A stretch of DNA of 64,000 nucleotides from Escherichia phage vB_EcoM_YN3 (PV763136.1), one strand, 5' to 3'. Positions 14,473-14,931 are shown, numbered from the stretch's first letter. The notes: generated from the sequence alone by a model not told the origin. Numbers and translations are program-made.

Positions 14473-14931
14473 TCAACACTCTTTGTACTCCACCACGATA
14501 ATATCTATATCAAAAGTGGCAAGGTTAATAACGTCCTCCACGTGTCCCCACTTCAAGCCGCCTATGCCGCACCCAATCTTAGGGATGTAGAATGGTAAAG
14601 TCGATCCCTTAAATATCTCATTGACTCGCTCAAAGCCTTTCAGAATTGAGAAATATTCAGCATTAGGCCCTGGGTAGAACTGAGTGTACAGATTGATTCC
14701 GTATACAATACCTTTCGGAGATAAGTGCTCCCACCGAGAGAACGCACCTAGCTTACTTAGGCAACCGTAGGTAGTCGTTTTGTCAGCTGCCAATGCTTGA
14801 GGGAACTCACGGGCAATCTGTTTTGCTACACCCTTGCCCATTGTGTGGAAGCAGTTACAACCGTGGATCAGGTGACCAGCACCACTCTTAAAAAGGGAGA
14901 TTAAATCTCCCTCTACAGTATCAATAATCAC
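14473..14931 (-). CDS. Macro-domain (ADP-ribose binding/hydrolase-like) protein; GTG start coupled to upstream stop
   Basis: Motif order resembling macro domains: IVIIDTVEGDL, HGCNCFHTMGKGVAKQI (compare NAAN...GGGVxxAI), PKIGCGIGGL (compare IxTGxxG); GAGGAG RBS; longer track ORF would overlap the upstream gene by 110 nt. Confidence 0.5.
   Translation of the reverse strand: MIIDTVEGDLISLFKSGAGHLIHGCNCFHTMGKGVAKQIAREFPQALAADKTTTYGCLSKLGAFSRWEHLSPKGIVYGINLYTQFYPGPNAEYFSILKGFERVNEIFKGSTLPFYIPKIGCGIGGLKWGHVEDVINLATFDIDIIVVEYKEC

Follow-up and report, generated by a model that had tools for sequence, protein, structure and literature searches.

Macrodomain gene and its relatives

The genome of Escherichia phage vB_EcoM_YN3 (PV763136.1) carries a short gene with the motif order of a macro domain. 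The window analyzed here is a stretch of 64,000 nucleotides of this genome, and all positions are counted from its first letter. The source phage is an rV5/FV3-like Escherichia myovirus of the genus Vequintavirus (Vequintavirinae), and the 4.5 kb around the macrodomain gene share 93–97% identity with HMD-6, FV3 and over 100 further phages. The gene and its translation signal are as follows:

14473..14931, minus strand: macrodomain gene, 152 aa plus stop, GTG start; CDS boundaries as in the annotated orthologues
14942..14947, minus strand: Shine-Dalgarno sequence GAGGAG, 10 nt 5' of the GTG and within the end of the upstream gene; read from sequence

The longest mechanical ORF (14473-15030, minus strand) runs into the upstream gene. 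The real start is the GTG at 14931, where the first-pass annotation had also placed it, and the annotated CDS of its orthologues in HMD-6 and FV3 is the same, at 459 nt. Comparison with HMD-6 and FV3 gives dN/dS values of 0.13–0.14, indicating that this is a real gene under purifying selection.

At the protein level the gene product is 98% identical to its HMD-6 counterpart. Against FV3, the gene has a dS of ~0.96 and ~79% nucleotide identity, compared with an average of 93% for the surrounding 4.5 kb. At least two allele groups of the protein are found in Vequintaviruses, at ~91–93% and ~81–83% protein identity, and allelic exchange among these phages is suggested for this locus. Sixteen records labeled "Campylobacter phage" (MG0656xx, including MG065635.1 and MG065690.1; host Campylobacter jejuni) match the rV5-like region at more than 90% identity and encode a macrodomain protein 91–92% identical to that of the window; these genomes may be mislabeled or contaminant.

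Near-identical genes in GenBank are already labeled "macro domain protein", "phosphatase" or "O-acetyl-ADP-ribose deacetylase". The macro-domain annotation of this gene is therefore not new, and its lineage is known and very recently characterized. Homologues were detected by tblastn in 2,722 of 50,697 phage records, 113 of which encode a protein at least 80% identical.

Identification as a stand-alone macrodomain

The first-pass annotation had assigned a macro domain from motif resemblance and had named profile searches and structure prediction as ways to check it. The three motifs that it quoted are all present in the sequence, and both approaches bear the assignment out. The protein exceeds the gathering score of the Pfam Macro profile (PF01661), with 26.9 bits vs 22 and E 5e-6, and its match to PHROG 335 is at 1e-58. 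The macro part of the DarG profiles also matches (NCBIfam, E 1.6e-11; PADLOC, E 6.6e-13), with both scores stronger than those obtained for T4 AdfM. A profile of 66 family sequences matches Mtb DarG, TARG1, BT1257, SCO6735, Taq DarG and Poa1p in the PDB at 1e-14 to 1e-18, and profile-profile comparison with DarG-type macrodomains returned a probability of 99.4%.

The AlphaFold (AF2) model of the protein (pLDDT 96, pTM 0.91) contains the three-layer alpha/beta/alpha macro fold, and its best Foldseek match is human TARG1/OARD1 (4J5R; E 1.8e-10, TM 0.78–0.85). Both ADP-ribose-binding loops are found in the protein, N-x(5)-G-x-G-[IV]-A (loop 1) and G-x-G-x-G-G (loop 2), and residues N26, G34, A36, G120 and G122 are invariant among the 66 homologues. 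On the basis of these predictions, we classify the protein as a stand-alone macrodomain of the TARG1/ALC1-like class.

Active-site residues and proposed mechanism

Three stretches of the protein line up with the substrate-binding and catalytic positions of characterized macrodomains:

14824..14865, minus strand: loop-1 motif H23-G-C-N26-C-F-H-T-M-G-K-G-V-A36; alignment columns
14662..14694, minus strand: motif N80-L-Y-T83-Q84-F-Y-P-G-P-N90; alignment columns
14554..14583, minus strand: loop-2 diphosphate-binding motif P117-K-I-G-C-G-I-G-G-L126; alignments

In addition to the loop residues given above, G24 of loop 1, N80, Q84 and P117 of loop 2 are invariant in the 66 family members. Alignment columns equate N26 (14854-14856) with DarG N22 and SCO6735 N27, and G24 with SCO6735 V25. 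Three independent alignments place Q84 (14680-14682) in the column of the catalytic lysine of DarG (K80) and TARG1 (K84), which is also that of the essential Gln85 of SCO6735. The pair Q84 and N26 maps onto Q85 and N27 of SCO6735, and T4 AdfM carries the same residues. G124 stands at the position of TARG1 D125, as in DarG.

SCO6735 is a macrodomain without a catalytic lysine; mutation of Gln85 abolishes its activity, and N27S leaves almost none. The enzyme removes ADP-ribose linked to thymidine in ssDNA and relieves the toxicity of DarT (PMC9411070). In the mechanism proposed in that study, the glutamine positions the distal ribose and a backbone-held water is the proton donor (PMC9411070). 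This precedent demonstrates that a lysine-less enzyme with an Asn/Gln motif can carry out the DarG reaction and, together with the conserved residues, leads us to propose the window protein as an orphan SCO6735-like DNA ADP-ribosylglycohydrolase.

The proposed enzyme would bind the ADP-ribose that the host DarT2 toxin puts on thymidine in single-stranded phage DNA, and would hydrolyze the base-ribose bond, so that ADP-ribose is released and replicable DNA is restored. In effect it would be an orphan antitoxin-like enzyme directed against DarTG2. Gln84, held by Asn26, would position the distal ribose and the transition state as in the lysine-less SCO6735 type, and a backbone-bound water near residue 24 would act as proton donor. 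Such chemistry would be unlike the lysine-dependent chemistry of DarG and TARG1.

Placement among characterized phage macrodomains

Macrodomain proteins of three other phages have been assigned functions. T4 Tk.4, encoded next to vs, was the single significant HIDEN-SEQ hit under DarTG2, and a clean tk.4 knockout sensitizes T4 to DarTG2; the protein was named AdfM ("anti-DarT factor macrodomain"), and the authors infer that it removes ADP-ribose from DNA (preprint 10.1101/2025.11.20.689424). The Bas54 HIDEN-SEQ text and supplements contain nothing on the Vequintavirinae macrodomain gene. In Vibrio phage Gary, the macrodomain protein Adpp, encoded between Adps and Namat, dephosphorylates ADPR-1''-phosphate and so enables NARP1 to restore NAD+ once aRES (RES-domain) has cleaved it, as demonstrated in vivo and with purified protein (preprint 10.64898/2026.01.28.702374). 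PhiKZ gp104, also called AdfM, removes DarT2 marks in vitro (PMC13309987) and belongs to a closely DarG-like, lysine-bearing lineage.

The window protein shares 39% identity with T4 Tk.4 over its full length (153 aligned residues, E 8e-41) and 34% identity with Gary Adpp (E 2e-20). It is 66% identical to a protein of Krischvirus ELT3 and 46% identical to one of Tequatrovirus EC121, both encoded at the tk.4 position in the order regB, vs.1, vs, macro, small genes, tk, rI. In a neighbor-joining tree of 102 sequences with 200 bootstraps, the window protein grouped with ELT3 in 199/200 replicates. A deeper node that unites it with all tk.4-position proteins, excluding both NARP1-linked proteins and the outgroups, was recovered with moderate support (147/200), and grouping with Gary Adpp to the exclusion of T4 was seen in 2/200.

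Residue signatures follow the same division. HGCNCFHTMG and NLYTQ-x-PGPN are common to the window protein, T4, EC121 and ELT3, and the signature H23-G24-x-N26 ... T83-Q84 is identical in these four. Gary and a Pakpunavirus NARP1-linked protein have HQ-x-NCF and N-x-YGQY instead, with a His-rich insertion after the glutamine in Gary. The window protein thus has G24/T83 and not the Q24/G83 of NARP1-linked members, a signature that was derived in this analysis and is not an established definition of Adpp. We conclude from these comparisons of sequence that the protein is to be assigned to the T4 Tk.4/AdfM lineage.

Association of the family with NARP1

Tblastn searches with Gary Adps and Namat were negative both for the window and for the complete genome of HMD-6, which is 97% identical (all E > 5). 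A Pfam scan of the 59 window ORFs of at least 100 aa revealed no NADAR/AdfN, ART, Nudix, Nampt or SIR2 protein; the NADAR reported for the Vequintavirinae Bas60-62 was not seen among these ORFs.

Across the wider family, Adps plus Namat were sought within 4 kb of 145 macrodomain loci in an IMG/VR set. With scan patterns that imposed position 24, the pair was found beside 15/40 macrodomain genes of the Q24/G83/Q84 type vs 1/83 of the G24/T83/Q84 type, and 35 of the latter 83 lie in a T4 tk.4 neighborhood. After dereplication at 60% identity, NARP1 was present beside 6/22 Q24/G83/Q84 and 1/41 G24/T83/Q84 members (Fisher p = 0.006). No residues other than 24 and 83 that separate the two signature classes passed the filter.

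Two further variants were observed in the IMG/VR set. One macrodomain gene in a T4 tk.4-type neighborhood encodes Lys, not Gln, at the position-84 column (G/T/K), and 16 HQ-type proteins have Ala or Ser at position 83 with no NARP1 nearby. The family may hold further functional subtypes.

Proposed role and alternatives

Active DarTG2 islands are known from E. coli, EPEC E2348/69 being one example (PMC12255303). We conclude that the window protein is probably an orphan DNA ADP-ribosylglycohydrolase that counters DarT2, with substrate, chemistry and anti-DarTG2 phenotype all assigned by homology. The first-pass annotation had suggested an ADP-ribosylation eraser or anti-defense factor, and this agrees with the reported role of the closest characterized relative, T4 Tk.4/AdfM, in resistance to DarTG2. 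Its other suggestion, degradation of ADP-ribose-derived signaling molecules, found no specific support. A different small-molecule role is known in the sister lineage, that of the ADPR-1''-phosphate phosphatase Adpp, and both genomic context and residue signature argue against it for the window protein. An Adpp-type enzyme would convert ADP-ribose-1''-phosphate, produced by aRES phosphorolysis of NAD+ or by another route, to ADPR, and it is from this role that PHROGs and RefSeq take the "phosphatase" label. Biochemical data for the 34%-identical Gary Adpp favor such a function. The window protein also has H23 and T30, which under an inferred numbering offset would align with yeast Poa1p H23 and S30 (mutated in its structures; 6LFQ). 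We nevertheless consider it unlikely. Adpp is useful because it feeds NARP1, and neither the window nor the complete HMD-6 genome encodes an Adps or Namat homologue; the neighbors of the macrodomain gene are instead small proteins without assigned function. The Q24/G83 signature and the post-Gln84 insertion are missing from the protein, the tree places it with the tk.4-position proteins, and just one of the 83 genes with its signature adjoins NARP1.

The breadth of substrates in the TARG1 class raises the alternative of an eraser whose main target is not DarT2-modified DNA: U-ADPr RNA, Glu/Asp-ADPr protein (a host toxin or a phage enzyme), or O-acyl-ADP-ribose from a phage SIR2-family protein. 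Enzymes of this class are promiscuous, with U-ADPr on RNA as an additional substrate of SCO6735 and TARG1 (PMC13036486) and proteins among the substrates of SCO6735 (PMC9411070). TARG1/OARD1 chains are called O-acetyl-ADP-ribose deacetylase in the PDB, the same name that some GenBank records give to the macrodomain gene, and other parts of the HMD-6 genome carry an RNA-repair cluster and a gene for a SIR2-family protein. However, no ART, SIR2 or RNA-repair gene lies near the macrodomain gene in the window, the SIR2 gene of HMD-6 is ~50 kb away, and the T4 orthologue tk.4 was the single significant match in a screen against DarTG2. We also know of no E. coli defense system that ADP-ribosylates uracil in RNA, and a target of this broader kind seems improbable to us. 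Loss of catalysis altogether would leave an ADP-ribose binder, serving either to soak up ADPR-derived immune signals of the Thoeris type or to inhibit DarT stoichiometrically by direct binding. Macrodomains can be pure readers, such as the ThsA macro domain of Thoeris, which binds His-ADPR; the window protein lacks the catalytic lysine of DarG and TARG1, and catalytically dead SCO6735 still inhibits DarT by interaction (PMC9411070). A purely binding role is nonetheless very unlikely, because the invariant residues match those that SCO6735 needs for catalysis.

A wider proposal for the family, which we advance tentatively, is possible but doubtful. PHROG 335 would be split into AdfM-type thymidine-ADPr glycohydrolases acting against DarTG2 and Adpp-type phosphatases acting against aRES, both built on the same lysine-less Asn/Gln site and tracked by positions 24 and 83 and the post-Gln84 loop, with the window protein possibly bifunctional or broader in scope. 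The published comparison of T4 AdfM with DarG would then miss that the mechanism resembles SCO6735 more than DarG. Both the "phosphatase" label and the DarG comparison oversimplify the Gln-type family.

With a family member in ~5% of sequenced phage genomes, selection by thymidine ADP-ribosylation, or by related ADP-ribose/NAD+-centered defenses, appears to be strong and widespread. If the proposed role is true, a ready-made counter to DarTG2 is present in rV5-like phages, which are in wide use as candidates for the therapy and biocontrol of pathogenic E. coli, and since DarTG2 occurs in EPEC and other E. coli, the gene bears on host-range prediction. As close relatives with different functions, AdfM and Adpp form a tractable system for studying the switch between glycosidic and phosphoester substrates, and their divergence warns against spreading the "phosphatase" label over the whole PHROG.

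Comparison with known systems

Like T4 AdfM, the window protein is a stand-alone macrodomain of ~150 aa with a near-identical P-[KR]-I-G-x-G-I-G loop and a glutamine at the DarG lysine position, and the genes for both lie amid small genes in large lytic myoviruses of E. coli. The phages differ in subfamily (Vequintavirinae for the window phage, Tevenvirinae for T4), and the window gene lacks the vs/tk context and overlaps a lineage-specific 141-aa ORF instead. Gary Adpp is distinguished by its location between Adps and Namat, both missing from the window phage lineage, and by Q24, G83 and a His-rich 7-residue insertion after the glutamine, where the window protein has G24, T83 and no insertion.

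Identity to SCO6735 (Streptomyces coelicolor, PDB 5E3B) and its Bacteroides homologue BT1257 (2FG1/2AFC) is only 22–28%. SCO6735 has a longer, lysine-bearing mobile loop after the glutamine (K89, K94) that is implicated in DNA binding and is not found in the window protein, which reads QFYPGPN where SCO6735 has QHGMKTGSKGAP. It also has Val and Gly in place of G24 and T83, and is a cellular, DNA-damage-induced protein, whereas the window protein is viral. Human TARG1/OARD1 (C6orf130; 4J5R) is similar in size, shares the P-R/K-I-G-C-G loop and also takes thymidine-linked ADPr off DNA; its K84/D125 dyad is replaced by Q84 and G124 in the window protein.

The DarG2 macrodomains (T. aquaticus 5M31/5M3E and M. 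tuberculosis 5M3I) and PhiKZ gp104 are 22–26% identical to the window protein. DarG and PhiKZ AdfM have a catalytic lysine (K80/K78) within an F-P-T-K motif, in contrast to the glutamine of the window protein. Two further features of DarG, a DarT-binding domain at the C-terminus and a neighboring darT gene, are lacking in the window protein. PhiKZ AdfM enters the phage nucleus by import, and Vequintaviruses are not known to build one.

Identification of the window protein as DarG itself was considered and rejected. It scores 44.1 bits against the DarG equivalog NCBIfam NF048014, far below the cutoff of 250, with alignment to profile positions 3-143 of 338; the C-terminal domain, catalytic lysine and adjacent darT are missing. 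No darT gene adjoins it, its neighbors being PHROGs without assigned function and without Pfam or PADLOC match, and none of the neighboring ORFs is hit by the DarG profiles. Separately, Thermus phage phiMa (MH673674.1, 27026-28099) encodes a 358-aa protein with an N-terminus 64.5% identical to the Mtb DarG macrodomain. Its apparent full-length DarG-like architecture, C-terminal extension included, sets it apart from the stand-alone macrodomains.

Neighboring genes and expression signals

The macrodomain gene is the last of a putative three-gene transcription unit, with the following features in and around it:

14448..14476, minus strand: sigma-70-like promoter TTGACA-17-TATAGT at the macrodomain gene stop codon, for the downstream 66-aa gene
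14921..15346, minus strand: upstream 141-aa ORF (phrog_8157), with its stop overlapping the macrodomain gene start by 11 nt; ORF and PHROG match
15415..15612, minus strand: 65-aa ORF (phrog_9903), first gene of the putative unit
15469-15497, minus strand: second candidate promoter of the unit; consensus match
15684..15712, minus strand: sigma-70-like promoter TTGACA-17-AATTAT with TG extension, in the gap upstream of the 65-aa ORF; consensus match only
16151..16172, minus strand: terminator-like hairpin (9 bp, 7 G-C, T-run) after the 408-aa gene

The putative unit (65-aa ORF, 141-aa ORF and macrodomain gene) is bracketed by the hairpin at 16172-16151 and the promoter-like sequence at 15712-15684. 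The former is likely the upstream boundary of the unit and the latter its candidate promoter. The 141-aa ORF and the macrodomain gene are probably co-transcribed and translationally coupled. Homologues of the 141-aa ORF are found in Vequintavirus-like phages only. Its model is weak (pLDDT 71, with one of five models above 50) and yields no significant fold match. A split-DarG arrangement, in which this ORF would replace the DarT-binding domain, was discarded; the ORF matches no DarG, PADLOC, NCBIfam or Pfam profile.

Between 12.0 and 20.5 kb, 27 sigma-70-like promoters were counted vs 15.3 +/- 3.7 expected, almost all of them on the coding strand. All neighbors of the macrodomain gene belong to PHROGs without assigned function. 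The promoter pattern plausibly fits early transcription by host RNA polymerase. The placement of the gene in an early host-takeover block by the first-pass annotation is thus plausible, given the enrichment of coding-strand promoter-like sites and the many small genes of unassigned function, with the early timing standing as a prediction. In the same small-gene block, two sites are perfect 12/12 matches to the sigma-70 consensus (TTGACA-16/17-TATAAT; 19123-19151 and 13995-14022, minus strand) and several others match at 11/12, all on the coding strand.

Other features of the window

No tRNA genes and no Rfam matches at gathering scores were found in the window. A segment of ~570 bp at 1585-2153 is missing at the corresponding place in FV3 and HMD-6, and holds a 139-aa ORF (1597-2016, minus strand) without a Pfam match. 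The DNA polymerase gene (20617-23394, minus strand) is one uninterrupted ORF of 925 aa in the window. At breakpoint 20970/20971, an HNH endonuclease gene lies within an 842-bp insertion in FV3 and a 328-bp remnant is present in HMD-6, so that the polymerase is split in both. The window polymerase gene resembles the "empty-site" allele for a mobile insertion (homing endonuclease or intron).

In HMD-6, a cluster at 53.6-57.5 kb (PQ505080.1) encodes a nucleotide pyrophosphohydrolase, a SIR2-family NAD-dependent deacetylase and a "cyclic-phosphate processing receiver domain" protein, along with an RNA ligase, a polynucleotide kinase/phosphatase and a phosphoesterase. These NAD-consuming and RNA-repair functions could generate ADP-ribose derivatives as macrodomain substrates.

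The region at 224-980 is gene-poor and contains four direct repeats of ~25 nt with a CTGTT(T/C)ACA core (224-248, 609-633, 625-649 and 656-680) and several inverted repeats, including a perfect 18-nt pair (750-767 and 884-901). No genes are annotated in the matching region of close relatives, and it may be a regulatory or origin-like region.

The 408-aa protein (phrog_4477; 16188-17414, minus strand) ends in YAFDDDIPF after Gln/Pro-rich low-complexity stretches. DFDDDIPF is the C-terminal tip motif of E. coli SSB. The sole profile hint is a weak match of the last ~80 residues to the SSB tail in TIGR00621 (E 0.12). It might be a diverged phage SSB; alternatively, it might act as a mimic, recruiting or titrating host proteins that interact with SSB.
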